Assembly: GCA_903877885.1 (NCBI GenBank) | Contig: CAIRFN010000007.1 | Location: 111-64,110, forward strand | Direction: 5' to 3' | From: an uncultured Candidatus Berkelbacteria bacterium | GTDB lineage: Bacteria > Patescibacteriota > UBA1384 > UBA12157 | DNA: 64,000 nt | Shown here: in pieces, positions 9,637 through 59,300 of the stretch | Layout: every line of letters begins with the position of its first letter | Numbering within the stretch: the stretch's first letter is position 1 | Translations under genes and position numbers: made by a program | The notes under the pieces: model-generated | Told to the model about the DNA's origin: nothing | Databases searched by the model: none | What the model saw: only the letters and a program-made list of their open reading frames with translations

Positions 9637-9650
9637 TGAATTGAATGATA

Positions 9651-9687
9651 GATTCCAGATCCTGCGGCCCGCCGGTCTGGAATGACA
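9651..9687. repeat. Repeat A, inverted copy.
   Basis: GATTCCAGATCCTGCGGCCCGCCGGTCTGGAATGACA. Confidence 0.8.
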
Positions 9688-9721
9688 ATAATTATTTATA
9701 AAATAATATAAAAGGAGCTAA

Positions 9722-13404: not shown

Positions 13405-13723
13405 GCCCGTGTAGAGCCTTATTTAACAGGTTCAAAGTCTAACTAAAAATACGATCGTAAGCCAAGTAAACGTCTGCAAATCTACTTAACTCACGATCGT
13501 ATTTTTAGTAAAATAACTACTATTATATAGTATATATAGTAGTGGAGACAGGTGAGAGTCAGGTTGAAAAACAGCACTACAGGCTGACTAGTTAGCTCCT
13601 GGTATAAAAAGATAATAGGTTAGTTGATATGATTTTACCTGTTATTCGTCAAAATGATGTAAATAATGCGTCTGAAAATAAACCTTTTGCGACGCAACAA
13701 TAGTATCAGATATAAAGATCTAT

Positions 13724-13752
13724 AAAAACACTTTTATTTAAGAGTGTTTTTG
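13724..13752. terminator. Intrinsic terminator-like hairpin in the secF/ATPase convergent intergenic region.
   Basis: AAAAACACT...AGTGTTTTTG. Confidence 0.45.
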
Positions 13753-13890
13753 ATTAAATAAAGGATTTCAAATTTTGTTAAATTACTCTATTTTGCAATG
13801 TTTAGCGCCCGACATTAAAATAAAACTACTTTTGAAAAAGTGCGAAAAATTCGAAATTCGCCTCTCTCGCCCTCTCCCCCAGTCTATTTC

Positions 13891-13924
13891 CAAAAATAAC
13901 AGGTTTGTGAACCTGTTATTTTTG
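13891..13924. terminator. Bidirectional intrinsic terminator.
   Basis: AAAAATAACAGGTT-TGTG-AACCTGTTATTTTT: an 11-bp stem flanked by an A-run and a T-run, about 70 nt past the stop of the 941-aa ATPase gene. Confidence 0.65.
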
Positions 13925-13996
13925 CGGAAAACTAGAAAACAACATGTCGCTAGACTGTTATTTTTTACTCAATCACCTATTTGTGTCTATATCATC

Positions 13997-16822
13997 TTAA
14001 ATTTTAACCGATTTACCCTCTTCTAAAGGCTCTGCATTACTATTTGCTAGGCTTTTCATAATAATAGCTTTATCTTCTTCAATCTCTGAATTGATTGGCT
14101 TAAGCACTACTGGAGCTATAACAGCTGGCTCTTCGGTAGAAGTTTCTGGCTCTAATGCCGCCAGACGATCCTTTTGCCATTGTTCCATTTTATCATCAAA
14201 AACTTCCGCTTTTTCTTCAGTTTTTTGAATTTTTTCTTGGACCGTTTCTTCAGTTAAAGGTTGATCTTCGGTGCCACCGCCCAAGTACCAACGAACATCG
14301 CCGGGGTTTTGGACTTCGCGGTAATAGGTCTCCCCTATTTTTGGTGGGATTTTCACCACTAACTTCTTTTGCTGTTTAGTCATAATCTCTTCAATTTTTG
14401 GTAAATCCGCAATTTGACCAATTTGGGCTTCAACATATTCCCGATTCTTACTGTAAGTTTTCCGGGAAAACTCAATGATTTTTTCCACATTATTAAACTT
14501 AGTGGCGCTTCGCGGTAAGGTCTTGGCAGAAAACGCCGGGCTCGTCACACTATCAATGGACATCTTCACATAGACATGATAGTTATCGAGGTTAATTAAA
14601 TCATTGGCTTCGAAAATCGGCATAAACTCTGATTGTAGAAAATCCGCATCCGGTGAGCCAACGCGGAAAGTAATAATGGTCCCAACGTTACCGATAACCG
14701 CATCGCGGACCGGTTCAATCATTTGGGCCACATATTGATGAGCCATAATTAAGTTCAAATGATATTTGCGAGCTTCAGACAAAATAGTGGCAAACGATTC
14801 GGTCGCAAAGTTTTGAAACTCATCAACATAGAGATAGAAATCGCGACGATCTTCTTCTTTGATGCTGGCGCGGCGCATCGCAGTTAACTGAATTTTGGTA
14901 ATCATAAGAGAACCAAGCAAGGCCGAAGCATCTTCACCAATCTCACCAGTAGAAAGATTGACCAAGAAGATTTTGCCCGTATTCATAATTTCTTCAATAT
15001 TGATGGTCGACTTTGGCTGGCCAATAATATTACGAATCGTGGAGCTGGAAAGAAACTGACCAACTTTGTTTTGAATTGGAGCAATGGCTTCAGTTCGAAA
15101 CTTTGGATCGTATTGCTCATATTCGTTGACAAAGAAATCTTTAATCACCGGATCGGTAATTTGGGTGACGACTTTGTCGCGATAGGATTTATCAACCAGA
15201 AGTCTGGTTACGCCGAGCATAGTGGAATTTGGCACATCCAAGAGCGCCAGGACCGTGTTACGCAAAATGTATTCCAGTCTTGGACCCCAACTTTCACCAA
15301 AGATTTTTTTGAAAATACCGACGACACCAGAGGCGATAATGTTTTTCAAATCTGGATCAACGTTTTCCAATGGATTAAAAGCCACCGGATAGTTTCGATC
15401 GGCTGGCGAGAAAATAACCACATCTTTAATTCGCTCTTCGGGAATATATTCAATAATATGATTAATCAAATCACCATGAGGATCGACCACGGCAATACCA
15501 CGACCTTCGCGAATATCATCAATGGCCATATTTTCCAGCAAAGTTGATTTACCGGTCCCAGTCTTACCAATGACATACATATGATAGCGGCGATCCGGGA
15601 TCTTAATCCCAAATTTGTGTTTCAAATGCCTGAAGTCGGTTTGACCAAAAATCGTTAAATCTTGCGGGTCCACATTTTCTTCAATTGGCAAGTTCGCTGG
15701 CGGTTCGCCTTTTTTACTTCCGGCCCAAACAATGTTTGGCGTGGCGACGGTAATACTCGGTAAATGGTAAATGCTAGCTAATTCTTCGGTATTTAGAACA
15801 TAGCCTTCATCGATAAACAAACGGTGAGCATAATCAGCCCAGGCCGTCGGAGAGGTGTTAAGCGAACCGGATTTAAAACCATTCATATTTAAAAGATTAA
15901 ATTGTTTAAAAGCGCTCACGATTTCGGTAATTTTAGCTCTAGCTGTATTTTCATTGGGCGCGACTGATAATAAACGGATTTTGGTCCCGAAGCCCAATTT
16001 AGTCACTTTGGTTTCAATGCCTTTAAGTCCTGCCTCTTCAGTCCCGGACAGTTTAGTTTCTTCAGCCTTAACTCCACGAGCCGATTCTGGTGTAGTGCCA
16101 GTCATAATTGTGGTAAAAATCGCCGAGAGACTTCTGGCGACAGTACCCCAGAAAATCTCACTTAGATTTTTGCCTTTGACAGTGCCAGACTTAACCGCTT
16201 TAATATGTTTCATGCCCTTGGATTGCCAATCATCAGGCACAGGTTTAACCATAATTTGCATCCAGATTTGTTCATCACGTTCGATTTTTGATAAGACACT
16301 AGTAATAGCAGACAAAGGATCGACTTCAAAATTTAAGAAGGATTTAATCGGAAAAACATCGTTATTGGTTAAACTAATTTCGGTCCCAGCAACTTTGGCG
16401 CTACCAGAATTAACATGTTCAGCTTCTTCTAGAGTGTAGTCATCGACTTCGTTAATTTCCGCAGTCGGATATTGGGCATAGATCTGACCGGTGACAAAAT
16501 CTTTTAAATGAGTTGGAGTGCAAACATAGAAATAGATGTATTTATCACGCGCCGCAATTTCAAAACTAATATATTCTTGATAAGGATTTTCTGCTCGGTA
16601 AATACCATGAATAGCCGAAAACATTTGTTCGGCAGCTAATGGTGTTTTTTCATTGTTTTTTGGGACCAGAATTCTAAGGACAACAAAACGTATTTTCGAA
16701 AACCATTCGATTTTCTGGTTTTGTTGGCGATTCTTGATGATTTTAGAAATAATCAGCATTGGCATCAAAATAACTCCGAGTAGAATTAAGCCTTTAATAA
16801 ATAGTGGTAATAATGTTTGCAT
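13997..16822 (-). CDS. Membrane-anchored FtsK/HerA-superfamily ATPase, TraG/VirD4 (T4CP)-like, with a long N-terminal domain and an acidic C-terminal tail.
   Basis: N-terminal TM helix; Walker A VIGKTGTGKST followed by AVVDPHGDL (T4CP DPKGE-like); Walker B YLYVDEFQNF. Paralog of the 17384-19900 gene. Confidence 0.7.
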   Translation of the reverse strand: MQTLLPLFIKGLILLGVILMPMLIISKIIKNRQQNQKIEWFSKIRFVVLRILVPKNNEKTPLAAEQMFSAIHGIYRAENPYQEYISFEIAARDKYIYFYVCTPTHLKDFVTGQIYAQYPTAEINEVDDYTLEEAEHVNSGSAKVAGTEISLTNNDVFPIKSFLNFEVDPLSAITSVLSKIERDEQIWMQIMVKPVPDDWQSKGMKHIKAVKSGTVKGKNLSEIFWGTVARSLSAIFTTIMTGTTPESARGVKAEETKLSGTEEAGLKGIETKVTKLGFGTKIRLLSVAPNENTARAKITEIVSAFKQFNLLNMNGFKSGSLNTSPTAWADYAHRLFIDEGYVLNTEELASIYHLPSITVATPNIVWAGSKKGEPPANLPIEENVDPQDLTIFGQTDFRHLKHKFGIKIPDRRYHMYVIGKTGTGKSTLLENMAIDDIREGRGIAVVDPHGDLINHIIEYIPEERIKDVVIFSPADRNYPVAFNPLENVDPDLKNIIASGVVGIFKKIFGESWGPRLEYILRNTVLALLDVPNSTMLGVTRLLVDKSYRDKVVTQITDPVIKDFFVNEYEQYDPKFRTEAIAPIQNKVGQFLSSSTIRNIIGQPKSTINIEEIMNTGKIFLVNLSTGEIGEDASALLGSLMITKIQLTAMRRASIKEEDRRDFYLYVDEFQNFATESFATILSEARKYHLNLIMAHQYVAQMIEPVRDAVIGNVGTIITFRVGSPDADFLQSEFMPIFEANDLINLDNYHVYVKMSIDSVTSPAFSAKTLPRSATKFNNVEKIIEFSRKTYSKNREYVEAQIGQIADLPKIEEIMTKQQKKLVVKIPPKIGETYYREVQNPGDVRWYLGGGTEDQPLTEETVQEKIQKTEEKAEVFDDKMEQWQKDRLAALEPETSTEEPAVIAPVVLKPINSEIEEDKAIIMKSLANSNAEPLEEGKSVKI

Positions 16823-16834
16823 AAGTTATTTTCT

Positions 16835-17347
16835 TTACTTTTTTTCAACTAAATTTTCGATGGCTGCCCAATCGCATTCACCAACTTTTGGTACCACAGC
16901 GGTAACTTTGTCGCCAGCTTTGGCTTTGAAATATGTGACTGATGATTGCAGACATTGATACTTTTTGTTATCACAAGTAACATGCCAGCGTTCACTAGTT
17001 TTTTGCAATTTGCCCATCACACGTTTGCGTTCGACTGGTCCAATTTGTTTAAAGATAAAAGAGCCGTCGGGACTGATGGTTAGTTTCATTTTGTCGCCAG
17101 CCACCAATTTTGATTTGGACGCATAGTTAGCGGGCACAGAATGCTTGGTCCCATCTTTATCAATCATTTCTTCGCCATCAAACACACCTTCGATAATCGT
17201 TAACGGTCCGGTGGTAATCATTTCTAAATTCTCGGCTTCTTCTTGATAAACTTGCTCAAACATAATCCGACGCACCGATCGAACTTTTTCTTCAATTTCT
17301 TCTAATAGTTTTCTAAGTTGTGTAAATTTTTTACCATCTTGATCCAT
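16835..17347 (-). CDS. Hypothetical 170-aa protein encoded between the two T4CP-like ATPase genes.
   Basis: ORF, co-directional and tightly spaced with its neighbours. No recognisable domain. Confidence 0.5.
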   Translation of the reverse strand: MDQDGKKFTQLRKLLEEIEEKVRSVRRIMFEQVYQEEAENLEMITTGPLTIIEGVFDGEEMIDKDGTKHSVPANYASKSKLVAGDKMKLTISPDGSFIFKQIGPVERKRVMGKLQKTSERWHVTCDNKKYQCLQSSVTYFKAKAGDKVTAVVPKVGECDWAAIENLVEKK

Positions 17348-17383
17348 AGTATCCTCATTTTTGTTTTTGTATTTTAAAGTATC

Positions 17384-19900
17384 CTACAAATTGTTTAGTG
17401 GTCCATTTGCTCCAGCTGGTGGAGTAACTGGCGGTTGAGCTGCGAAACTTTCGGCCATAATTTGATTTATTTCGGCTACCGGTCGGCAATAATTTTGGCG
17501 CGACAGGTTCCTCACTTGCTCACGAACTTCCGGATTTGAAGGAACACCGCTTTTAATTCCTTTCATACTAAACGGCTTGGTCGGCGTACCATCAACCAGT
17601 AGTTTAGTATAAGTGTTAAATTTATCTAAATTGGTCATATCGTCAACTGACAGCCCCGGAAATTCCTTGACCATGAACTCGGCGTCAGCCGCACCAATGC
17701 GATAGCAAATCATGGTGCCAGCGTTACCGACGACCGCATCACGAATCTTTTCGGTTAGTTGAGCAATATATTGGTTGGTAATATTTAAGCTTAGTCGATA
17801 TTTGCGCGCTTCAGACAAAATAGTGGCAAAACTGTCGGTGGCAAAGTTTTGAAACTCATCAACATAGAGATAGAAATCCTTGCGGGTTTCCTCTGGCATA
17901 TCGGCGCGGGAGAAGGCGGCCATTTGGATTTTATTAACAATAATCAAACCCAAAAGGCTCATATTGACTTCGCCGATTTTACCTTTACTTAAGTTTACCA
18001 ATAAAATTTTGCCTTCATCCATAATCTGGCGAAAATCAAAAGCCGATTTTTTCTGACCGATAATATTGCGCATCATATCGTTGGTCATAAAACGACCAAA
18101 TTTAGATGTAAAATAATTTAACATTTCCGATTTATGAAAATCAGCGGTTTTAGCCATTTGCTGATCCCAGAAACCCTTGACCACCGGGTCGGTGACATAG
18201 GACACGACTTTTGTTTTGAAAGCATCATCGGTAAAAATACGCGGAATATCGATTAAGGTACCGCCGCCTGGTTGAGCCATAATAGTTAGTGCCGCATTTC
18301 GAAACCAATGTTCAAATTGCGGTCCGACCATACCGGTACGATTCGGGTCAAATAATTTATAGAAAATCTCGATCACTTCTTGAATTAAAAAGTCACGATC
18401 TTCCGCATTTTTAAATTCCATCATGTTAAGACCAGCCGGCCATTCGGTATCCGAGGGGTCAAATAGAATAACATCTTTCATTCGTTCCGGTGGAATTTTA
18501 CCAAGCAAATCTTCGATGGCGTCGCCCAATGGATCAATATAACAACAACCGTGACCGGCCAGAATATCTTGCTCAATCATATTGGTAAACAAAGTGGTTT
18601 TACCCACACCGGTTTTACCAATCATGAAAATGTGGCGGCGGCGGTCATCAGGCTTAATTTTAATAAAAGTTTCTTGGTCCCGATAAACCGACAAGCCCAT
18701 GGTTGTGCCTTCGGTTGGCACATTGGCTGGCGGCGCCATTTCTTTAGCCAAGAGCCAGCGAATGTTTGGGGTTTCAATGTTTTGGTTGGGAAAGTGATAT
18801 AAAGTCGCCAATTCTTCGGTATTTAGGATAAAGCTCTTTTTACCTCGAAGAAAGCGTCGCAAAATGTATTCTTTGGCTGTAGTAGCATCGCCAGATTTGA
18901 TTTTAAAACCATTAAGTTCCGGTGTACCCAAAACCGCAAAAGCCGAAGCCATATTTTGCAAATTAGTGCTCGCCGACATTTTATCGGTGGCCACACTCAC
19001 TAAGCGCAAAGTTGTCTTAAAACCGTTTTTAGAAACCTTTTCATTGAGAGCCTTCATCAAACCATCTTGAATCGGGGTCATTGGTTTGTAAGTATTTTTA
19101 TCCATGCCTGGCGGTTTGTTGGCAATGGAATCGGTCCCGGAATGGACCGCACTGGAAAAACTATCAAAAAACCAATGAATCGCTTTAATATACCATTTGT
19201 CGATTAAAACCGAGGTCTTACCTTCCTGAACTTTTTTAATCGCGGTAATGGCCGGAATGCGCCAGTTCTCACCGGCTGGTCGAATAATCATTTGGAATGC
19301 GGCATTAGCACCTTCGCCCAATTTACTCATGGTGTTAGTAATACTATTTAAAGGATCACTTTCGAGCGCGGCATAGGTTTTGATCGGCAAAATAAATCTT
19401 TTAGTTAATTTCATCGTAGCGGTGGCGAAATCACCGGTTTGAACTTGGCCATCAGCATTTTTAAGTTCAAAAATATTTGGGGTTCGCACTGACACTAAAT
19501 TGGCAGTTGGATATTGCGATTGGATTTGTTTAGAGACCATTTCCTCAATCATTTTGGGACAAGAAACATAGAAAGAAATCAAATTGTCCTTGGCCACAAT
19601 TTCAAAGGAAATTTGTTCTTGTTCCTGAATGATTTGATTAGTGATGTCCGATGAGTACAAGCTGGCAAAAGACGAAAACATTTGCTCAGCCACAGAAATA
19701 AGTTGTTTAAAATCTTTTGGCGCTTCCTTGTCGCTAACATGATGAAGTTCTTTAGGTAGAGTCACCAAGAAAACCCGAGTATTTAAAACCCGTTGAATTT
19801 CCAAGTTTTTGCGATGATTCTCGACCAGCCAATAAATAAAATAAGCTAGGCCGAAAATTGCGACAACTATCAGCCAAAAAATGATAAAATTAAATTCCAT
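17384..19900 (-). CDS. Membrane-anchored FtsK/HerA-superfamily ATPase, TraG/VirD4 (T4CP)-like, paralog of the 941-aa protein.
   Basis: N-terminal TM; MIGKTGVGKTT then YIDPLGD; YLYVDEFQNFATDSFATILSEARKY is near-identical to the block in the 941-aa paralog. Confidence 0.7.
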   Translation of the reverse strand: MEFNFIIFWLIVVAIFGLAYFIYWLVENHRKNLEIQRVLNTRVFLVTLPKELHHVSDKEAPKDFKQLISVAEQMFSSFASLYSSDITNQIIQEQEQISFEIVAKDNLISFYVSCPKMIEEMVSKQIQSQYPTANLVSVRTPNIFELKNADGQVQTGDFATATMKLTKRFILPIKTYAALESDPLNSITNTMSKLGEGANAAFQMIIRPAGENWRIPAITAIKKVQEGKTSVLIDKWYIKAIHWFFDSFSSAVHSGTDSIANKPPGMDKNTYKPMTPIQDGLMKALNEKVSKNGFKTTLRLVSVATDKMSASTNLQNMASAFAVLGTPELNGFKIKSGDATTAKEYILRRFLRGKKSFILNTEELATLYHFPNQNIETPNIRWLLAKEMAPPANVPTEGTTMGLSVYRDQETFIKIKPDDRRRHIFMIGKTGVGKTTLFTNMIEQDILAGHGCCYIDPLGDAIEDLLGKIPPERMKDVILFDPSDTEWPAGLNMMEFKNAEDRDFLIQEVIEIFYKLFDPNRTGMVGPQFEHWFRNAALTIMAQPGGGTLIDIPRIFTDDAFKTKVVSYVTDPVVKGFWDQQMAKTADFHKSEMLNYFTSKFGRFMTNDMMRNIIGQKKSAFDFRQIMDEGKILLVNLSKGKIGEVNMSLLGLIIVNKIQMAAFSRADMPEETRKDFYLYVDEFQNFATDSFATILSEARKYRLSLNITNQYIAQLTEKIRDAVVGNAGTMICYRIGAADAEFMVKEFPGLSVDDMTNLDKFNTYTKLLVDGTPTKPFSMKGIKSGVPSNPEVREQVRNLSRQNYCRPVAEINQIMAESFAAQPPVTPPAGANGPLNNL

Positions 19901-19939
19901 TATCCCCTGCCCTCTTTGTTTTTACAAATATTTTTTGTT

Positions 19940-20350
19940 TTATTTTTGAACTGGTTCGTCAACGGTGTAGGCGCTGACTTTGTCAGCTAAATCACGAAGA
20001 GCATCTAAAGTTGGCGCTGGAGTGTCGATTAAACTTTCGGCGTAGTCCAATGAATTTTCGGCTTTGATCACTTCTTTAGCTGGGATTGGCGCTGGCATAT
20101 TTTCTGGAGTGATAACCGGAGTTGGTTCAATTGGCGGTGGTGGCGGTAGCTCGGTCACGGTTTCTGGCGCTTTAATATTTTGAATTGGTTCAACCGCAAC
20201 TGGAATTTCTGGAGTCGGCAAATTTACTGGAGTTGGTGCAACTTCAGTTGGACTTGGAGTAACAGGTGGCGTATTTGGATTTAGTTCTGGCATTGCGCCA
20301 GGTACTGGCGGTATTACCGGTGGCGTCATTGGATTCTGATTTGGATTCAT
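19940..20350 (-). CDS. Proline-rich low-complexity protein, first gene of the ATPase operon.
   Basis: ORF of 136 aa, about 30% Pro (PPV/TP repeats). Good RBS (GGAG). Confidence 0.5.
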   Translation of the reverse strand: MNPNQNPMTPPVIPPVPGAMPELNPNTPPVTPSPTEVAPTPVNLPTPEIPVAVEPIQNIKAPETVTELPPPPPIEPTPVITPENMPAPIPAKEVIKAENSLDYAESLIDTPAPTLDALRDLADKVSAYTVDEPVQK

Positions 20351-20424
20351 AAAGATTAGCTCCCTTCTAGCTAATATTATACCGCAAATAAATTAGAAGT
20401 AAAATCAAAAAGGGTAATACAACT

Positions 20425-20518
20425 TGTCATTCCAGACAGGTTGGCAACCTAGATCTGGAATCCAGGAAAATTATTCTGGATTCTTGATGTCGAGTTACCA
20501 CTCGGCTCGAGAATGACA
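20425..20518. repeat. Composite repeat A+B unit.
   Basis: TGTCATTCCAGACAGGTTGGCAACCTAGATCTGGAATCCAGG, a 9-nt AT linker, then TCTGGATTCTTGATGTCGAGTTACCACTCGGCTCGAGAATGACA. Lies upstream of the ATPase operon. Confidence 0.85.
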
Positions 20519-20571
20519 TTTGTTATTTATTGATATATTGATTATCTCATAAATTGAGATAAAAAAATACC

Positions 20572-21778: not shown

Positions 21779-21789
21779 GATACATATTA

Positions 21790-21833
21790 TCTGGATTCTT
21801 GATGTCGGATTACCATCCGGCTCGAGAATGACA
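21790..21833. repeat. Repeat B copy.
   Basis: TCTGGATTCTTGATGTCGGATTACCATCCGGCTCGAGAATGACA, between rplL and tgt. Confidence 0.8.
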
Positions 21834-21845
21834 AGATAAGATTAA

Positions 21846-27593: not shown

Positions 27594-27601
27594 AATGTTA
27601 A

Positions 27602-27684
27602 TGTCATTCCGGACAGGTTGGTAACCTAGATCCGGAATCTAGTCTGGATCCCCGATGTTGAAATACCATTCAACTCGAGGATGA
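27602..27684. repeat. Composite repeat A+B unit (diverged).
   Basis: TGTCATTCCGGACAGGTTGGTAACCTAGATCCGGAATCTAG then TCTGGATCCCCGATGTTGAAATACCATTCAACTCGAGGATGACA. Confidence 0.8.
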
Positions 27685-27698
27685 CAGAATAAATATTT

Positions 27699-29074: not shown

Positions 29075-30388
29075 TTAATCGCCAGATTTTAACAATCTGA
29101 TAATATCCTGTTGTAAATTGGCTTTGACAAAGATTGGCTGCCAATGTTCAGCCGTGTCTTTGCCAGTATCGTAGGGTAAGACATAAGTCGAATTTTTGCT
29201 CAAATGTTTGATGATATCCAGACCACTTTGGCGCTCGTAGTCTTCGACTTTTGTGCGTTGTATGTCAGACATCTTGGTTTTTCGAACATGACCGCGAACC
29301 GCATGCGGCGATTTAAAGTTATTTGTGCATTCTTTGCGAATCGGTTTTAGTTCATCGGTTTTGAGAACTTTAGTAGAAATAGTCCGCTGAATGTAGATAA
29401 ACCGTGGTTTGTATTCGGAAATTAGCCGAACACCATAGGTTTTGGCTGGTTTCCAATCCTGGCGCGCCTGACTTCGATCATTAACTTTAACTTCCTTGGC
29501 TGTGCATAAGTCATGATAGATCAGCCAAGCAATAAAGTAAGCGAAATTGTAAGGACGGCCGCCATGGTCCATACCGATAGAAGTAAGAACATCGGGATCA
29601 ACGGCAACCATTGTCAATGAACCATAAGTGAATTCGGCTTTAATCATTAAGCCAAAATCGCCGGTCCCATACATCTGTTTGGGTTTAATTTTAACCCATT
29701 TGAGAATCGGATAACCGTGAATAACCACCTCGGTCCCGTCTGGGTCCGGCGCGTAACGGAAATTTTCTTTCAAGTCTTGATAGAGATTAGTAATAATACG
29801 TAAATCATTGAAAATTGGAATCTGATCGACAATTTGTTCAATCTGATAAATATCCGTCGGATCCGAAATGTAATCAAGATCAGTTTCATTGTCATACCAT
29901 AGTAACTGACCTTTGACTGGCAAAATCATTGTTCGCAAATCTTCAACCGATGTAACTTGTTTGCGGAGATTTTTAAACAATGGTTTACGGCCACTATAGC
30001 CGACTAGAACTTTGGTTTCATCGCCGATCAGATAATGAATCTGAACAATGATAATGTAAAGCAAGCTGTAAATATCATCGTCACCATCCACCCGAATTTC
30101 GGCCAGAATAGTATAGAATTCATCGAGTAGACTGAACTGCCGAGTGACTTCGATTTGCTTGGCAATAAGCGAAATTTTTTCAAACAGTCGATCAATAAAC
30201 AGTTCGGCCGATTCTTGATATTTATCGTCCGACATTTCAGTCATCATCGAAGTCAAAAATTTGCCACCGGTAGCGCAATCATCAGGCACCGGCAAAGTGA
30301 TGTTCGGATTAACACAAACTTTTTGAAGTAGTCGATGAGCCGCGCTTCGCGCAAGATAAGTCTTTAAAATTTCTGGCTTCTGCCACAT
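29075..30388 (-). CDS. Hypothetical protein (437 aa), GC-richer than the core genome.
   Basis: ORF followed by an intrinsic terminator at 29034-29060. No recognisable domain. Confidence 0.5.
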   Translation of the reverse strand: MWQKPEILKTYLARSAAHRLLQKVCVNPNITLPVPDDCATGGKFLTSMMTEMSDDKYQESAELFIDRLFEKISLIAKQIEVTRQFSLLDEFYTILAEIRVDGDDDIYSLLYIIIVQIHYLIGDETKVLVGYSGRKPLFKNLRKQVTSVEDLRTMILPVKGQLLWYDNETDLDYISDPTDIYQIEQIVDQIPIFNDLRIITNLYQDLKENFRYAPDPDGTEVVIHGYPILKWVKIKPKQMYGTGDFGLMIKAEFTYGSLTMVAVDPDVLTSIGMDHGGRPYNFAYFIAWLIYHDLCTAKEVKVNDRSQARQDWKPAKTYGVRLISEYKPRFIYIQRTISTKVLKTDELKPIRKECTNNFKSPHAVRGHVRKTKMSDIQRTKVEDYERQSGLDIIKHLSKNSTYVLPYDTGKDTAEHWQPIFVKANLQQDIIRLLKSGD

Positions 30389-30486
30389 ATCAGTCTCTCC
30401 TTTTGTCTGCAGGTTGGATTGTTAAGGTCGCATCGATAATAAGTAATTTTAACACCAAAACGACTAATCGTCAAGATTTTTAGTAC

Positions 30487-30527
30487 TAAAAAAGACTCTT
30501 TTGATATTATCGCCAGAGTCTTTTTTC
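30487..30527. terminator. Bidirectional terminator downstream of the LPXTG gene.
   Basis: AAAAAAGACTCT-N15-AGAGTCTTTTTT. Confidence 0.6.
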
Positions 30528-30538
30528 TTATATTAACT

Positions 30539-31147
30539 TTAGAAGTTTAATAAGTGAGAAACTGAATTGATACCTTGTTTGGTCCGATTAATTAGATAAC
30601 CGGTAGTTCCCAAACCAGCGACCAATAATGAAACAGCCACGTCCGCACCAGTTTTTGGCAAAGTGCCAGAACTGACCGGAGTACCAATTTTCACAACATT
30701 ACTGTTGGAGTTGGCATTGCTGTTCTTGCTGGTTTTATTGCTGGTTGAAGAAGATTTCTTGCTACCAGCAGTAGATTTGGCATTAGCAGTTGCTGAAGCC
30801 GAACCAGAAGCAGAACCAGAACCAATGTTAATAACATTGTTATTGGCATTAGCGTTAGCATTACTATTAGCATTGTTGTTGCCAGTAGTAGTCGCCAACT
30901 GGTGACTGGTTTGATGAGTAGAAGTGGTGTTGTTGGCCGCAGTTGATTTAGCGGTCGAATCAGCATCGGCTGAACCTTTAGCTGAGCCTGAACCAACGTT
31001 GATAACATTGTTGTTAGCATTTGAGCTAGCATTAGAGTTAGCATTATTGTTGGTAATTACAGCATCACTAGCATATGAAATGCCAGTAGTTGCCAATAGA
31101 CACAAAGCCATGGCCACTGCCACGAAAGTTTTGTTAGTTTTGTTCAT
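30539..31147 (-). CDS. LPXTG-anchored Asn/Ser-rich repetitive surface protein.
   Basis: Signal peptide and NANSNA.NNNVIN.GSGSA repeats. C-terminal LPKTG, then a hydrophobic stretch, then a basic tail (NRTKQ). Confidence 0.7.
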   Translation of the reverse strand: MNKTNKTFVAVAMALCLLATTGISYASDAVITNNNANSNASSNANNNVINVGSGSAKGSADADSTAKSTAANNTTSTHQTSHQLATTTGNNNANSNANANANNNVINIGSGSASGSASATANAKSTAGSKKSSSTSNKTSKNSNANSNSNVVKIGTPVSSGTLPKTGADVAVSLLVAGLGTTGYLINRTKQGINSVSHLLNF

Positions 31148-31329
31148 TTTATCCTTTCTTGGATATTATATGTTTTTTGAAATAAAATCAAATTCAAATT
31201 TACAAGACAACCCTGGAAGTTACCTTCTGATTCAAATTGACATTTTTTCGCCTTTCGACAAAGGCCTTGGGATTCTTCCCAAATTCGATTGCCTCGGAAG
31301 TTACTCCGAGGCGTTCGATCTAGAAGGAA

Positions 31330-32151
31330 TCAGCGGGCTACCGCCCAATTGTTGTTGGCGTTGCTATTAACATTTGAATTCAAGTTGTTGTTGGTTATCG
31401 GACCAACCGATCCACCGGTGGCCGATCCACCGGCTCCGCCGGTGGCAGTCGCAGACACATTGATTCGCGTCGGCGACGTTGTCGAAATACCGATCAACTG
31501 CCATGTGTTCATGGTCGCGCCATAAACACCACCCATCTGCGCGCAACCGTATTGTTGCGGTGCGAAGTTGTTCGTGATGTTATACACCACGATTGGTTGC
31601 ATCGGCGGTTGCGGTTGAGGCAGCGTAACTTGTTTTTCGATAACCCGCTCGATCACTCTTGTCTCACCAGGGTCACCTTTATCGCCTTGTTTACCTGTCG
31701 CCCCGACTAATCCCTGAATCACTGTCGTCGTATTCTTTTGAACGACGATTGTTTCAGGTTTGTCAAGCTTGCCATAGAAGAGAATCGCGTTACCGCGGAT
31801 CCCCTTCTGGGCATGCAGGAAATGGCCGTCGCCCGTCTGAAAGGTTACTCCAACCATTTGGGCTGACTCTTGCGGCGTGACATCCGGCCAAGGGACAGCA
31901 TCGTCCGGAGCAATACCCCACCGAAATTTGCCATTGGCACCAACCGGCAGATTTTCTTCAACACCTTCGTGTTTTGTAAAAAAATCCTTCGGCAGGCCAA
32001 ACCAATGAGCAAACCCAGTGTATCGCGCATCGGTACGAACCTCACTGACTGTGAGTTTCGCACGCTGTTCGGTCACATAGCCAGGCACACTAGCCTGGAC
32101 AAGGGTTACTGCCATTACGGCTAGCAGCAAAGCCATCACCAGATTTTTCAT
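31330..32151 (-). CDS. Secreted protein with a short collagen-like G-X-Y run and an Asn/Ser-rich C-terminus.
   Basis: Signal peptide; GATGKQGDKGDPGE; C-terminal NNNLNSNVNSNANNN resembling the adjacent LPXTG protein. High G+C. Confidence 0.5.
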   Translation of the reverse strand: MKNLVMALLLAVMAVTLVQASVPGYVTEQRAKLTVSEVRTDARYTGFAHWFGLPKDFFTKHEGVEENLPVGANGKFRWGIAPDDAVPWPDVTPQESAQMVGVTFQTGDGHFLHAQKGIRGNAILFYGKLDKPETIVVQKNTTTVIQGLVGATGKQGDKGDPGETRVIERVIEKQVTLPQPQPPMQPIVVYNITNNFAPQQYGCAQMGGVYGATMNTWQLIGISTTSPTRINVSATATGGAGGSATGGSVGPITNNNLNSNVNSNANNNWAVAR

Positions 32152-32154
32152 CGA

Positions 32155-33504
32155 CTAATCCTCCTCAATCGTGATGAAATCCGTTTTTATCGTGGGTATT
32201 TCACCACGATAAATATGTATTTCCAGGATATTCACATCCGCGTTGGTACACTGGACGGAATTCGCCGTAGCCGTGGCATAAGCAAGGACGGCACCAGTCT
32301 TATGGTCACAGAGTGAGATACACTGCGGTTTAGCCATTAACTGGTAAAACCACTTACTATTGACCAACTGAGTTGGGCATTTTATATTCTTAATGCCCTT
32401 CCAGATAACGACTGTGACACTCAAATTGAGTGTAACTAACTCTTCAGACGGTTGCGTTTTTATAACAGTTGATACGCTCGCCGTCGCTGTCGATGATGCA
32501 GTCGCGGTTACACTCACCGATGAAGATGAGCTTACTCGTACTTGTCCATCAACATGAATTGTTGGCGGAATATTCGATTCCACCTGCGGTACTGTTGGCA
32601 CAATTGCCTGCGGTACAGCTGGCGGACCAAGTGGTTCTCCTTGCGGCATTGGTGGCTCGATTTTCTGTGGTACCACCACCGGCGGCAACGGAATCGGAAT
32701 CGGAACTGGAGTTGGCGGCGGCGCTTGTTGACTTGGACTTGGCGGCGGTTGGGTATGATTATTAGTCATACCAGCCACTGTGTTATTCAAAGCCACCACA
32801 GCCGGATCAGGTGTTGCCCAACTGGGCACAAAACCTCTAAGATACGTAAATGTCGTATGATCGCCGTCAATAGTATTCGGTATTTGGTCGAAATCAGGCA
32901 TTGCCTGCTGGACCATAATATCGAATCCGACTGTTACCTTGCGAGTTGAGTCATAAGTAATCGGAATAATTACGATTGTGATTTTATTATGTTTATCACA
33001 AACCGCGACTTTCCATTCTAGACTTGACATCTCACCAGGCGTTAACGCGACTGCAATATCGCGCGACTCATAGACATCCTTATCTTTCGCCTTTTTCTTT
33101 GGCATTAGAACTTTACATTTCATTAACACCGGCTCATTGCCGATAGGTAATGATAATGAATAGCCCTTATTGACAAAAAAATTAGTCTGCCAAACAGTGT
33201 TGCCACCATCTGGCGTCATAATCGCCTCTTCGATTTTTCCACCTTCGATACCGACAGTGGAAAGCGAAACTTCGTAAGACATCGATGAATGCGCTGTTAC
33301 CACAGTTAAAACATTCATCTTGGTGCTTGTACCACCGACCGGACGACCAAAGTGCTTGGCATTACAACGTGACGAAAGCCCAGTTAGGTCAGTCCATTCA
33401 GTGATGGAAATTCCACCACTCCATTGAAAGTCTTGCGCCAGAATCGGCGCTACTGTAATCGCTATGATTACAGCAAGAAACCAAATTTTCAAATTACCTC
33501 GCAT
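32155..33504 (-). CDS. Secreted protein with a Pro-rich linker and a Ser/Thr/Ala-rich segment.
   Basis: Signal peptide (AVIIAITVAPILAQ); PPPSPSQQAPPPTPVPIPIPLPP linker; SSSSVSVTATASSTATAS. High G+C. Confidence 0.5.
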   Translation of the reverse strand: MRGNLKIWFLAVIIAITVAPILAQDFQWSGGISITEWTDLTGLSSRCNAKHFGRPVGGTSTKMNVLTVVTAHSSMSYEVSLSTVGIEGGKIEEAIMTPDGGNTVWQTNFFVNKGYSLSLPIGNEPVLMKCKVLMPKKKAKDKDVYESRDIAVALTPGEMSSLEWKVAVCDKHNKITIVIIPITYDSTRKVTVGFDIMVQQAMPDFDQIPNTIDGDHTTFTYLRGFVPSWATPDPAVVALNNTVAGMTNNHTQPPPSPSQQAPPPTPVPIPIPLPPVVVPQKIEPPMPQGEPLGPPAVPQAIVPTVPQVESNIPPTIHVDGQVRVSSSSSVSVTATASSTATASVSTVIKTQPSEELVTLNLSVTVVIWKGIKNIKCPTQLVNSKWFYQLMAKPQCISLCDHKTGAVLAYATATANSVQCTNADVNILEIHIYRGEIPTIKTDFITIEED

Positions 33505-33746: not shown

Positions 33747-35102
33747 TCAAGGTTTATTTAGTATTTTTGTGCCTTCAGCCGTGTCTTCGATATTAATGCC
33801 TTGCTCGGCCAACTCGCTTCTTATTTTATCAGATTTAGCCCAATCACCAACCTTGCGCGCCGCTTCGCGTTCTTCAACCATTGATTTTTGTTCGACAGAT
33901 AATTCGGTTTTAGCCTCTTTTTGAATTAAGTCCAAACCCAAAACCCTATCCATTTCAGCAACGGTTGCTAGCTTATCTTCAGGGCTAATTTTGTCATCGC
34001 GAACCAATTCCCAAAGAACTGACAATGCCCCTGGCGAATCTAAATCATTAGCCATTTTAAGGTTAAACTGGCCAGAATATTCAGTGTTAATACTACCAAT
34101 ATTTACATCAAAATCCTCGATTATCCGCTTTAATCTGGTTCGCGCGTTTCTGGCACCTTCCAGACCATCCCAGGTAAAATTCATTTTAGTTCGATAATGG
34201 GCCCCTAAGCAAAGATAACGAAAATCGAGCCCGGAAAAACCCTTAGCTTTGATATCGTTTAAAGTATAGAAATTATTTAAGGATTTGCTCATCTTCTTGT
34301 TGTCAACCAAAAGATGTTCGTTGTGGAGCCAGTAATTAACAAATTTAACCCCGGTTTTGCCTTCAGATTGAGCAATTTCGTTTTCATGGTGCGGAAAAAT
34401 ATTATCAACGCCGCCGGTATGAATATCTAGAGTGTTACCCAAAATATCCATCGACATCGCCGAGCATTCAATACTCCAACCAGGCCGACCTTTACCAAGT
34501 GACGTTTCCCAAAAAATCTCGCCGTCAGCTTCGTCCCAAGCTTTCCATAAAACAAAATCAGCCGGGTTTTCCTTGTCATATTCGTCTTGATTGACTCTAG
34601 CACCAGGCTTTAAACTAGTCTGATCCAAATGCGCCAATTTACCATATTCAGGAAATTTGGCAATCGAAAAATAAATTGAACCGTCGCTGGTTTTATAGGC
34701 CAAACCTTTTTCCAGCAATACTTCGATAAATTTAACCATTTTGTCAACGTATTTAGTCGCGTTAGTCACCACATTTGGCTTCAGATTATTAATTTGGGAA
34801 AAATCAGACCAAAACTGGTCTTCATATTTTTTAATCACCTGCTCAAATTCCGCCCTCTTGCCCTCGCCTTTTTTGATTGTTTTATCGTCAATATCAGTAA
34901 TATTCATCACCCGATTCAGATCGTATCCGGCGTGAGTCAAAACTCTGGTCAAAAGATCAGCAAAAATATAGGCGCGCAAATTGCCAATGTGAACCGAGTC
35001 GTAAACCGTTGGACCGCAAGTGTAAAGTTTAACTTTACCCGGTTCGATTGGTTTAAAATCTTCGATTTTACGATCTAAGGTATTAAAAAATTTAATCGTC
35101 AA
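33747..35102 (-). CDS. cysS: Cysteinyl-tRNA synthetase.
   Basis: CGPTVYDSVHIGN (HIGH) and KMSKSLNN (KMSKS) motifs; Zn ligands. Confidence 0.9.
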   Translation of the reverse strand: MTIKFFNTLDRKIEDFKPIEPGKVKLYTCGPTVYDSVHIGNLRAYIFADLLTRVLTHAGYDLNRVMNITDIDDKTIKKGEGKRAEFEQVIKKYEDQFWSDFSQINNLKPNVVTNATKYVDKMVKFIEVLLEKGLAYKTSDGSIYFSIAKFPEYGKLAHLDQTSLKPGARVNQDEYDKENPADFVLWKAWDEADGEIFWETSLGKGRPGWSIECSAMSMDILGNTLDIHTGGVDNIFPHHENEIAQSEGKTGVKFVNYWLHNEHLLVDNKKMSKSLNNFYTLNDIKAKGFSGLDFRYLCLGAHYRTKMNFTWDGLEGARNARTRLKRIIEDFDVNIGSINTEYSGQFNLKMANDLDSPGALSVLWELVRDDKISPEDKLATVAEMDRVLGLDLIQKEAKTELSVEQKSMVEEREAARKVGDWAKSDKIRSELAEQGINIEDTAEGTKILNKP

Positions 35103-35331
35103 ATTTATCTTCTTCCTCTTCGTCAGCCTCTTCTAATGGCACGATTTCAATCTCACCATCTTTTTGAACCATATCTTTCGGATACGATTCCAAATCTTCA
35201 TCGTCAAATTCATCATAAGCGGAATTACCTTCCGAAAAAACACCACCGCAAATGTCGCAAATATCCCCAATTGGACCTTTTTCGCCACATTCACAGACAC
35301 CTTCTAAAAGTTGATCTTCTGTCATTTCCAT
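35092..35331 (-). CDS. Small acidic protein with a CxC...CxxC zinc-ribbon-like cluster.
   Basis: 79-aa ORF with GVCECGEKGPIGDICDICGG and D/E-rich flanks. Overlaps the cysS start. Confidence 0.4.
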   Translation of the reverse strand: MEMTEDQLLEGVCECGEKGPIGDICDICGGVFSEGNSAYDEFDDEDLESYPKDMVQKDGEIEIVPLEEADEEEEDKFDD

Positions 35332-35340
35332 CTCCCTTTA

Positions 35341-35420
35341 TTAATTATTTAATGCAGAATGCAGAATTAATTAATTTATTTTTTAATTCTTTTATTCTGA
35401 ATTCTGAATTATCTAATTAT
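35341..35420. repeat. Repeat D copy 1 (AT-rich palindromic element).
   Basis: Contains ATGCAGAATGCAGAATTAATTAAT...TTCTGAATTCTGAATTA. Immediately downstream of the recR stop. Confidence 0.5.
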
Positions 35421-36022
35421 TAATATTCTTTTCTTCCCTCTAATGCTCTAGTTAGAGTGATTTCATCGGCATATTCCAGATCGCCACCAACCGGCAAACC
35501 TCTGGCAATCCGGGTCACCTTAACTTTGAAGCCTTTTTTATGTATTTGGCTATCCAAATACATACTGGTCGCTTCCCCTTCCAATGATGGGTCGGTAGCC
35601 AAAATCACCTCTTTAATTTCGGGGTTCTTCTCGATTTTAGCTAAAAACTCCGCAATACGCAAATTTTCCGGGCCAATACCATCGATCGGCGAAATTACCC
35701 CGCCTAATGTAAAGTATAAACCATCGTAATCGGTCTTTTCCAGTGCCACAATGTCAAGAGGTTCCTCCACTACCATAATTTTAGTTTTATCGCGTTGAGG
35801 ATTAGCGCAAATTTCGCACGGTTCGCTTTCAGTAATATTAAAACATTCGGAACAATATTTTAGGTTTTTCTTGAGATTTGAAACCGCCTCGCCCAGGTTT
35901 TTAATATCATAATCAGGTTTATTAAGTAAATAAAAAGTCAGCCGCCCGGCGGTTTTAGGCCCAATTCCAGGCAGTTTTCCAAATTCTTCAATTAAATTTT
36001 CGATCGATTTCGGTAACCGCAT
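35420..36022 (-). CDS. recR: Recombination protein RecR.
   Basis: LPGIGPKTAGR helix-hairpin-helix, C4 zinc finger CSEC...CEIC, Toprim domain. Start at MRLPKS. Confidence 0.9.
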   Translation of the reverse strand: MRLPKSIENLIEEFGKLPGIGPKTAGRLTFYLLNKPDYDIKNLGEAVSNLKKNLKYCSECFNITESEPCEICANPQRDKTKIMVVEEPLDIVALEKTDYDGLYFTLGGVISPIDGIGPENLRIAEFLAKIEKNPEIKEVILATDPSLEGEATSMYLDSQIHKKGFKVKVTRIARGLPVGGDLEYADEITLTRALEGRKEY

Positions 36023-36115
36023 ATATTGAATATATAAATTACTGGATGTTTTAGCAAGGGGCATTTTCCACCACCGCCACTTCGGAAGTGGAGGTGAGGT
36101 TTGAGCCCCGTCCTC

Positions 36116-36930: not shown

Positions 36931-37013
36931 CGTACTTAAAAATATAAAATTTATATCTTTTCATACCTTTCCATCCACCTCGTAGGTGGAACAATAGGTT
37001 TAGTAACCAGTTA

Positions 37014-37055
37014 CTGGATTCTTGATGTCGAGTGCCACTCGGCTCTAGAATGACA
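37014..37055. repeat. Repeat B copy.
   Basis: CTGGATTCTTGATGTCGAGTGCCACTCGGCTCTAGAATGACA, downstream of the topA stop. Confidence 0.8.
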
Positions 37056-37068
37056 ACTATAATGAGAA

Positions 37069-51133: not shown

Positions 51134-51175
51134 CCTAGATTCCGGATCTAGGTTGCCAACCTGTCCGGAATGACA
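51134..51175. repeat. Repeat A, inverted copy.
   Basis: CCTAGATTCCGGATCTAGGTTGCCAACCTGTCCGGAATGACA, between the Ig-like protein and the vWA protein. Confidence 0.8.
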
Positions 51176-51186
51176 AAAAGGAAATT

Positions 51187-52917: not shown

Positions 52918-52948
52918 ATTTTTTTACTCCTCGAACATTTTATGAAAT

Positions 52949-52988
52949 CTGGATTCCAGATCCTGATGCCATCCGGTCTGGAATGACA
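52949..52988. repeat. Repeat A, inverted copy.
   Basis: CTGGATTCCAGATCCTGATGCCATCCGGTCTGGAATGACA. Confidence 0.8.
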
Positions 52989-52995
52989 AGACAGA

Positions 52996-55224: not shown

Positions 55225-55244
55225 TTGTACTCCTTTATTTATGA

Positions 55245-55339
55245 TGTCATTCCAGACAGATTGGCAATCTTGATCTGGAATCCAGGAAAATTGTTACTGG
55301 ATCCCCGATGTTGAATTACCATTCAACTCGAGGATGACA
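55245..55339. repeat. Composite repeat A+B unit.
   Basis: TGTCATTCCAGACAGATTGGCAATCTTGATCTGGAATCCAGG then CTGGATCCCCGATGTTGAATTACCATTCAACTCGAGGATGACA, between minor pilin genes. Confidence 0.85.
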
Positions 55340-55353
55340 AGGAGAAATTATTA

Positions 55354-57909: not shown

Positions 57910-57928
57910 ATGGTATTAAGTTTTTGCT

Positions 57929-58023
57929 TGTCATTCCAGACAGGTTGGCAACCTAGATCTGGAATCCAGGACAATTAATCTGGATTCTTGATGTCGGATT
58001 AACCATCCGGCTCGAGAATGACA
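57929..58023. repeat. Composite repeat A+B unit.
   Basis: Near-identical to the 20425 and 59141 copies, between pilD and the pilin-like gene. Confidence 0.85.
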
Positions 58024-58035
58024 ATTCGATTACGT

Positions 58036-59121: not shown

Positions 59122-59140
59122 TTTTCTCTCCTTTTATTAC

Positions 59141-59235
59141 TGTCATTCCAGACAGGTTGGCAACCTAGATCTGGAATCCAGGATAATTAATTCTGGATTC
59201 TTGATGTCGGATTACCATCCGGCTCGAGAATGACA
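59141..59235. repeat. Composite repeat A+B unit.
   Basis: TGTCATTCCAGACAGGTTGGCAACCTAGATCTGGAATCCAGG then TTCTGGATTCTTGATGTCGGATTACCATCCGGCTCGAGAATGACA, between pilA and pilC. Confidence 0.85.
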
Positions 59236-59300
59236 AATTTTTTGATTATTTGATTATTCCTTAGGCTTAATCGACCAACTAGCCTTTTATTAAGGATAAA

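Follow-up and report, generated by a model that had tools for sequence, protein, structure and literature searches.

An operon from a Berkelbacteria-like genome encodes two paralogous coupling-protein-type ATPases with a predicted VirB4-like N-terminal domain and a putative OB-fold partner

Within a 64-kb stretch (64,000 nt, all of it analysed and hereafter the window) of the 159-kb metagenomic scaffold ERZ18624736 scaffold_20, which among named relatives is nearest to metagenome-assembled genomes of Candidatus Berkelbacteria and the 'Patescibacteria group', we analysed a four-gene operon that encodes two large paralogous ATPases, A and B. Both share one architecture, in which a transmembrane (TM) helix is followed by a DUF8128 domain, with a predicted fold like that of the VirB4 N-terminal domain, and then by a nucleotide-binding domain (NBD) of the TrwB/VirD4 type that probably includes the all-alpha region; the gene between them encodes a 170-aa protein (S170) predicted to contain two oligonucleotide/oligosaccharide-binding (OB) folds. 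With moderate confidence, we read A and B as a membrane-anchored nucleic-acid translocation motor that probably works with a chromosomal machine resembling a type IV secretion system (T4SS). The phylum concerned, Patescibacteria, accounts for much of bacterial diversity, and its members, which live on other cells, lack nucleotide synthesis.

The operon lies on the minus strand of 13997-20350, where open reading frame (ORF) calling on the window revealed four intact ORFs in the same direction, with intergenic gaps of 39, 36 and 12 nt in gene order from 1 to 4 and a GC content of 0.40-0.41 that is the same as in the surroundings. The four genes are:

19940..20350, minus strand: gene 1, 136 aa, 25% proline, low-complexity, without a TM segment and probably disordered (ORF)
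17384..19900, minus strand: gene 2, the A-type ATPase (A), 838 aa (ORF, Pfam/NCBIfam, alignment)
16835..17347, minus strand: gene 3, S170, 170 aa (ORF, predicted fold)
13997..16822, minus strand: gene 4, the B-type ATPase (B), 941 aa (ORF, Pfam/NCBIfam, alignment)

A and B are 36% identical across 763 aa (BLASTP, E 4e-163), and a Kyte-Doolittle scan found a single N-terminal hydrophobic helix in each, with no second TM-grade segment. Both carry the motifs ISFEI..FYV..P...QYPTA, GKTGxGKT followed by DPLGD/DPHGD, and YLYVDEFQNFAT(D/E)SFATILSEARKY, and both look catalytically competent because Walker A, Walker B and ~90 further positions are invariant in 33 orthologs of the two paralogs. The C-terminal tail of B (residues ~791-941) is Glu/Lys-rich and differs in length among orthologs. 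The parts of the two proteins are:

19814..19900, minus strand: A, residues 1-29, TM helix (hydrophobicity scan)
18701..19783, minus strand: A, residues ~40-400, DUF8128 domain, VirB4-like in predicted fold (Pfam record, predicted fold)
17501..18673, minus strand: A, residues ~410-800, TrwB-type NBD with putative all-alpha region (Pfam, hhalign)
18593..18619, minus strand: A, Walker A, G428-T436
17855..17860, minus strand: A, Walker B, D681-E682
Gene 4, minus strand: B, residues 1-32, TM helix (hydrophobicity scan)
15668..16696, minus strand: B, residues ~43-385, DUF8128 domain (Pfam record)
14453..15634, minus strand: B, residues ~397-790, TrwB-type NBD (Pfam, hhalign)
Gene 4, minus strand: B, Walker A, G419-T427, and Walker B, D667-E668

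Matches to curated Pfam and NCBIfam models were confined to the C-terminal halves, the Pfam copy scanned having no PF26449 (DUF8128). They comprised PF10412 (TrwB_AAD_bind) at 30.8 and 28.6 bits against a cut-off of 20.5 and PF12696 (TraG-D_C) at 22.3 and 24.0 bits against a cut-off of 22, with DUF87 and T4SS-DNA_transf also matching more weakly. The best NCBIfam matches were TraD/VirD4-like and below threshold, with SXT_TraD reaching 56.1 bits (cut-off 366), conj_TOL_TraD 40.3 (647) and CD1115 40.2 (250), such that A and B, at 41-56 bits versus cut-offs of 250-650, stand apart from curated TraD/VirD4 proteins. TrwB and DotL were the sole sequence relatives in the PDB. Profile alignment with hhalign sharpened this picture, with a 33-sequence profile of both paralogs aligning to R388 TrwB at a probability of 96.8% (E 2e-10, 270 columns), unbroken over TrwB residues 117-393 from Walker A to beyond Walker B, all-alpha domain included; the ~245 residues between Walker A and Walker B fall where the all-alpha domain of TrwB would sit. 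The family profile aligned to R388 VirB4/TrwK at a probability of only 1.8%, to the VirB4-like TrsE of pGO1 over a 73-column P-loop stretch and to pGO1 TrsK in the Walker B region only. Because the TrwB alignment reaches 96.8% over 270 columns, versus 1.8% for TrwK and short stretches for TrsE and TrsK, we assign the motor by sequence to the coupling-protein (TrwB/TraD) type.

Other classes of ATPase were matched poorly or not at all. Neither protein had a Pfam match to CagE_TrbE_VirB, AAA_10 or P-loop_TraG, nor at E <= 0.01 to FtsK_SpoIIIE or Ftsk_gamma, and the multi-TM N-terminus is absent as well; the NCBIfam model of CedD (NF053655) gave B 21 bits against a cut-off of 600 and A no match. 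The top PADLOC profile for the ATPase domain was mad8 (PDLC04140; E 1.7e-17 and 5.4e-17), accompanied by weak HerA matches, with the mad8 match spanning ~265 of 314 profile positions and covering the generic ATPase core only. With TrwB, VirD4 and TraD (R388 TrwB, PDB 1E9R), A and B share a homologous P-loop NBD and N-terminal membrane anchoring, and with TrwB the motifs Walker A...DPxGD, Walker B DE(F/L) and (A/G)RK(Y/A). The anchor differs, with TrwB running from two TM helices straight into its NBD whereas A and B have one TM helix and a soluble domain of ~350 aa. An earlier note on this DNA, written from the sequence alone, had described a same-strand operon of four genes with two paralogs (941 and 838 aa), a 170-aa protein between them and a Pro-rich 136-aa protein upstream, had listed an N-terminal TM helix, a conserved N-domain motif, a Walker A with DPHGD/DPLGD and a Walker B block, and had placed the pair in the TraG/VirD4-like class; the ORFs lie exactly so, all of those features are present, and the class assignment agrees with the PF10412 and PF12696 matches and the TrwB alignment.

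The same note had regarded the N-domain as novel, but this domain of ~350 aa is already catalogued as PF26449/DUF8128, which precomputed Pfam records assign to both window proteins and to all listed orthologs; we found no mention of DUF8128 in the literature. Since each protein has a single TM helix, the N-domain would be on the same, cytoplasmic side as the ATPase. Its predicted fold is that of the N-terminal domain of VirB4 (R388 TrwK, PDB 7O42/7O43/8RTD). Sequence-level homology to TrwK or to pGO1 TrsD was dropped, hhalign giving no sequence signal with the former and nothing with the latter, and the relation comes from fold comparison alone. A and B thus differ from VirB4 in three respects, namely that their ATPase falls outside the VirB4 clade, that the N-domains have no sequence similarity, and that no virB3, virB6 or virB8 adjoins them in the window or among recurrent neighbours. 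A match to VirB4 N-terminal domains, together with full T4SS genes elsewhere in the genome, had been named in the earlier note as the outcome that would make these ordinary conjugation genes; the modelled fold supplies the first of the two, and it firmly roots A and B in T4SS ancestry, but does not thereby make them ordinary conjugation genes.

Relatives outside Patescibacteria bear on this ancestry. The ATPase domain matched 637 plasmid records, which include standalone ATPases of ~395 aa (Sulfitobacter, Bradyrhizobium), plasmids of Streptomyces, Bacillus and Sulfolobus, and haloarchaeal megaplasmids, with many of these relatives being standalone genes on non-mobilizable plasmids. The N-domain matched 21 records. 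On haloarchaeal megaplasmids, an N-domain ORF of 355 aa stands immediately 5' of a 932-aa gene resembling a type IV coupling protein (T4CP), and on a Haladaptatus halobius plasmid (L087 8740-12689) the two halves of the module are encoded by neighbouring genes, beside large hypothetical proteins. Close to the N-domain ORF of Pontibacillus are a conjugal transfer gene of the Mbov_0395 pilin-like kind and a VirB4-like DUF87 gene, and Priestia megaterium pFDU301A (L095 11671-15252) carries a fused, frameshifted copy 6 kb from a P-loop_TraG/AAA_10 (VirB4-like) fragment. Because these homologs occur in conjugation-type contexts, the module of DUF8128 and a T4CP-like ATPase has its roots, in monoderms and archaea, in T4SS/conjugation systems.

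Many other genomes carry the family as well. We scanned one genome per GTDB species, which gave at least 600 matching stretches, and all locus counts refer to the best 80 loci unless another total is given; these came from Saccharibacteria, Doudna-, Levy-, Davies-, Woese-, Roizman-, Curtiss-, Magasanik-, Uhr- and Staskawiczbacteria and Paceibacterota. The DUF8128 profile counts 5,430 clusters at 50% identity, the domain always starting 35-85 residues from the N-terminus, and by these matches the ATPase family is phylum-wide in Patescibacteria and always sits amid housekeeping genes. A neighbour-joining tree of 164 full-length proteins, crude and midpoint-rooted, revealed A and B clades that part at the midpoint root, with the A clade holding 79 of the 81 proteins of multi-class loci and the B clade holding the B orthologs, two B-type proteins (L006, L008) and 30 diverse representatives; this split into two clades indicates that the duplication is old. 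A recent tandem duplication or a decaying copy, which the earlier note had raised as a duplicate with one pseudogenised member, is ruled out by the 36% identity, the intact motifs, the separate orthologs and the deep split.

Berkelbacteria-like relatives share the four-gene operon, with the order tgt, small gene, A, S170, B, secDF retained in L090 and L091 at gaps of 1-5 nt, and the B proteins of relatives that share the tgt/secDF operon are only ~55% identical. The A/B pair is also adjacent in L006-L008, and elsewhere A-type and B-type genes are at separate loci. The unit whose distribution and synteny the earlier note wished to see is kept in the Berkelbacteria-like relatives, and the family itself is phylum-wide. 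Recurrent neighbours were an XerC/D-type tyrosine recombinase (17 of the 80 loci), its gene convergent and just downstream, DnaX (16) and DivIC/FtsB (14), along with ribonucleotide reductase (RNR), NrdR, cobalamin adenosyltransferase, CorA and CysS, with the housekeeping sets differing by class. At Microgenomates-type loci, NrdR, RNR and a PduO-type adenosyltransferase (clusters 6, 7 and 11) are just upstream of the A-type gene. Standalone B-type genes were seen next to YebC-RuvC and a tyrosine recombinase/integrase (L092 12230-15651) and next to the dcw cluster with RsmH, FtsI, MraY, FtsW and MurG (L093 4883-12476); together with DivIC and XerC/D near A-type genes, this hints at a division/recombination neighbourhood, or at plain conserved gene order. 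In contrast to T4CPs of the TrwB type, A and B are chromosomal core genes, form two deep paralogs and are unlinked to a relaxase or T4SS in the window and the 80 loci.

S170 is predicted to begin with a long helix (residues 3-39) and to continue into two small OB-fold barrels of the cold-shock/S1-like kind, a model that has the five strands of an OB barrel and is closest to RNA-binding cold-shock/S1 domains. No Pfam or NCBIfam model matched S170 even at E <= 10, which leaves it outside the curated cold-shock domain, S1 and single-stranded DNA-binding protein (SSB) families, and its family profile found no relative among PDB sequences. We regard it as a putative single-stranded nucleic-acid-binding partner of the ATPases. 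A homolog of S170 stands directly 3' of the A-type gene in 18 of the 80 loci, and in L092 one follows the standalone B-type gene after a 17-nt gap. Two homologs, P0282 and P0305, carry a UniRef label beginning '50S riboso...', which looks like a propagated mis-annotation, S170 having no ribosomal-protein family matches. Gene 1 had no match in Pfam, NCBIfam or PADLOC. Of 74 related loci, 72 have a small same-strand ORF with a low-complexity product 5' of the A-type gene; homology among these small upstream proteins is not detectable across lineages, and their conservation is positional and compositional only.

The operon is embedded in housekeeping genes, with one flank holding genes for a UvrD/PD-(D/E)XK helicase, guanylate kinase and NUDIX proteins and SecD/SecF, and the other tgt, L7/L12, L10, L1, Pth and RF1. 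Farther off, the window contains dprA-topA and recR and, at 49-64 kb, a type IV pilus cluster. These flanks, the composition and the conserved synteny rule out a mobile-element origin of the locus. Three further features surround the genes:

20422..20521, minus strand: hairpin-rich repeat of ~100 nt (the 'A+B repeat'), like a repetitive extragenic palindromic (REP) element or miniature inverted-repeat transposable element (MITE), located 3' of the tgt stop codon and 5' of the operon promoter (nhmmer, RNA fold)
20376..20403, minus strand: candidate sigma-70-like promoter, TTTACT-16 nt-TATAAT (consensus match 10/12)
13452..13499, minus strand: terminator-like hairpin, a 20-pair stem followed by a T-run (consensus scan only)

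The promoter candidate is ~25 nt 5' of the start codon of gene 1, in a region that as a whole is not enriched relative to shuffles. Gene 4 and secF converge on a gap that contains the hairpin, at which the operon transcript may end. That gap measures 592 nt (13405-13996); in relatives L090 and L091, a DUF1290 membrane-protein gene separates the B-type gene from secF, and tblastn found no DUF1290 remnant in 13405-13996.

The leader repeat that the earlier note had pointed to is real, being a structured element with a predicted RNA fold of -36 kcal/mol (z -4.85). It ends in the inverted repeats GTCATTC...GAATGAC and contains two or three hairpins, which compensatory substitutions preserve between copies. 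An nhmmer profile found five near-full copies in the window (59139-59238, 57926-58027, 55242-55343, 27600-27687 and 20422-20521) and at least eight half copies (21789-21835, 37009-37059, 51134-51177, 52948-52990, 1089-1133, 1421-1467, 1484-1521 and 9649-9689), with copies adjoining Pth/RF1, tgt/L12, topA, uvrD-region and NUDIX genes. Of five occurrences of a 41-nt core, four are in the pilus cluster, where the copies stop ~20 nt 5' of ribosome-binding sites. No copy was found by nhmmer in the loci of other genomes, relatives with the same operon included, and Rfam gave no match. The repeat is best read as a genome-specific REP/MITE-like family, or else may be an mRNA-stabilising or processing signal, and is probably not a specific part of the ATPase system. 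A pilus-regulon link through the leader repeat was rejected because copies stand beside unrelated housekeeping genes and none occur in other genomes.

Several other observations were made along the scaffold. Beyond window position 1 (L005 1-1189), the RNR large subunit carries a LAGLIDADG-endonuclease intein, and the next gene encodes a CobA/BtuR-type adenosyltransferase. Between RF1 and cysS, 29075-33504 of the minus strand holds four consecutive genes (437, 202, 273 and 449 aa) with no Pfam family on record. In the region 35100-36100 (L003 13991-14212), adjoining recR, a 73-aa ORF matches Phage_T4_Y07B (PF27001), which is unexpected among housekeeping genes. The distal pilus cluster includes, after several N_methyl pilin-like genes, three large minus-strand genes (49185-51131, 51187-52917 and 52996-54789) for proteins of ~645, 576 and 597 aa with no Pfam on record, which may be pilus-associated adhesins or tip proteins.

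Part of this system is already known. Passages of Quinonero-Coronel et al. 2025 (PMC12102498) report 5,713 VirD4-type homologues in 2,918 of 3,035 Patescibacteria genomes (96%), VirB4 in 2,417 (80%), relaxases in only 103, and a separate, bona fide VirB4 in these bacteria, the authors noting that exaptation 'cannot be ruled out'. By count alone, at ~2 per genome like the A/B pair, these T4CP homologues fit the DUF8128 family, which would thus be both catalogued and counted. The passages on them mention no N-domain, VirB4-like fold, A/B paralogy, OB-fold partner or conserved operon. New here are the identification, from predicted structure, of a VirB4-like fold for DUF8128 and the finding that a T4CP motor carries such an N-domain and has a putative OB-fold partner. 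The best functional analogy is CedD/TedD of the crenarchaeal Ced and Ted systems, chromosomal membrane VirD4-like ATPases that serve a relaxase-less T4SS-like apparatus (PMC11823120). In Sulfolobus, membrane-bound CedD is encoded apart from the remaining ced genes and is required for DNA import; it differs from A and B in being archaeal and in having no described VirB4-like N-domain or OB-fold partner (PMC11823120).

A role in nucleic-acid translocation is plausible because S170 has predicted tandem OB folds, and to that extent the dedicated DNA or protein translocation system of the earlier note is partly supported, whereas the link it drew to the pilus and dprA uptake genes is unsupported, the shared repeat being dispersed and REP-like. 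VirB4 dimerises via its N-domain. By analogy with TrwB and FtsK/HerA-class coupling proteins, A and B would form membrane-bound hexamers, possibly as mixed rings, or as A:B dimers of the VirB4 kind. The ring would thread single-stranded nucleic acid at the expense of ATP, in import or export and as DNA or RNA, with S170 binding and presenting, or receiving, the strand, and the VirB4-like N-domain would be the module for oligomerisation and for docking onto a membrane channel. That channel would most likely be the chromosomal, relaxase-less T4SS-like machine encoded elsewhere in the genome of most Patescibacteria, for which A and B would be unlinked 'orphan' coupling proteins, as CedD is for Ced.

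Several results weigh against this reading of A and B as the motor of a T4SS-like machine. The genes of the window include no VirB4, VirB6, T4SS channel, relaxase or integrase, of which the missing VirB4, channel and relaxase count here (the earlier note had likewise seen no VirB-type channel or relaxase nearby and no obvious conjugative element), and the annotated recurrent neighbour clusters of the 80 loci include no T4SS, VirB4, relaxase, pilus, competence or dprA genes. The VirB4 likeness of the N-domain is structural only, with moderate TM-scores of 0.37-0.46. According to passages of PMC12102498, only 148 of the 5,713 homologues are near virB4, T4CP homologues occur in more genomes than VirB4 (96% vs 80%), and the Southlakia homologue is non-essential where T4SS genes are essential in the same screen. 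Because the family is wider than VirB4, is hardly ever linked to virB4 and can reportedly be lost where the T4SS cannot, autonomous roles are still live rivals.

Among these, the best placed, though we think it unlikely, is an autonomous motor that scavenges host RNA or DNA independently of the T4SS, through ComEC, the type IV pilus or another pore, with S170 receiving the strand. It would suit a family that is near-universal in a phylum without nucleotide synthesis, the predicted likeness of S170 to RNA-binding cold-shock/S1 domains, and the recurrence of RNR, NrdR and cobalamin adenosyltransferase upstream in Microgenomates-type loci. Moreover, a 2026 preprint has shown host-RNA uptake by a Patescibacterium, by a mechanism it calls unresolved (10.64898/2026.06.21.733656), and CedD shows that a VirD4-like ATPase can serve in import (PMC11823120). 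However, nucleotide acquisition should be essential and the Southlakia homologue, in passages of PMC12102498, is not; no conserved channel gene stands beside the ATPases, and the proximity of pilus and dprA genes does not recur. A related proposal, which we consider rather improbable, is that A and B are a VirB4/T4CP hybrid, either a surviving intermediate of the ancient split between the two families or a fusion, which together with S170 imports single-stranded host RNA or DNA throughout the phylum.

A similarly small chance attaches to A and B being a chromosome pump, like FtsK/SpoIIIE or Streptomyces TraB, that acts in segregation, septal clearance or dimer resolution at division. Membrane-anchored FtsK/HerA-class ATPases in core housekeeping neighbourhoods would be in keeping with this, as would the XerC/D-type recombinase (17/80), DivIC/FtsB (14/80) and DnaX (16/80) neighbours, RuvC, YebC and integrase in L092, and dcw in L093. 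Yet these neighbour sets are class-specific and look like ordinary conserved gene order, and the ATPase is specifically TrwB-like, with no FtsK_SpoIIIE match and no gamma domain. FtsK acts on double-stranded DNA and needs no OB-fold partner. In TM7x, furthermore, a separate ftsK is annotated (PMC10768705).

Lower in our estimation stands the possibility that A and B are substrate receptors for the export of protein effectors via the Patescibacteria T4SS. Protein export has been proposed for the relaxase-less T4SS loci of Patescibacteria (PMC10633639; passages of PMC12102498), and the charged C-terminal tail of B may resemble, by our own comparison, the substrate-receptor tails of some T4CPs. 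Against this, the OB fold predicted for the conserved partner is of a nucleic-acid-binding type, no effector or chaperone genes are linked, co-occurrence with VirB4 is weak and the Southlakia homologue is non-essential (the last two as given in passages of PMC12102498).

An anti-phage defence module akin to MADS mad8 or HerA-type ATPases is very improbable: mad8 is the best profile for the ATPase domain, weak HerA matches accompany it and many plasmid relatives are standalone on non-mobilizable plasmids, but the mad8 match covers the generic core, DUF8128 and the TM anchor are absent from mad8, neither the operon nor its flanks contain a methyltransferase, a nuclease, another MADS gene or any further defence gene, and phylum-wide vertical conservation, fixed tgt/secDF synteny and GC matching the surroundings are unlike defence islands. 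Least probable of all is an ordinary conjugation role within an integrated conjugative element, since the T4CP homology, the VirB4-like N-domain and the relatives in conjugation-like clusters outside Patescibacteria are set against a 64-kb window without relaxase, integrase, VirB4, VirB6 or pilin and without compositional anomaly, the same tgt/secDF flanks in relatives at ~55% protein identity, and relaxases in 103 of 3,035 genomes (passages of PMC12102498).

DUF8128 ATPases are among the most widespread envelope ATPases of Patescibacteria, at ~2 copies per genome, and in the literature they are simply orphan coupling proteins; if their function is routine T4SS coupling, the present result amounts to helpful annotation rather than discovery. 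Their architecture bears on the kinship of the two T4SS ATPase families, VirB4 and T4CP, and if A and B were a hybrid import motor they would be the missing machine behind the reported feeding on host RNA. With a VirB4-like N-domain, two ancient paralogs and a tandem-OB-fold partner, the system makes a well-delimited target for genetics and biochemistry in tractable Saccharibacteria.

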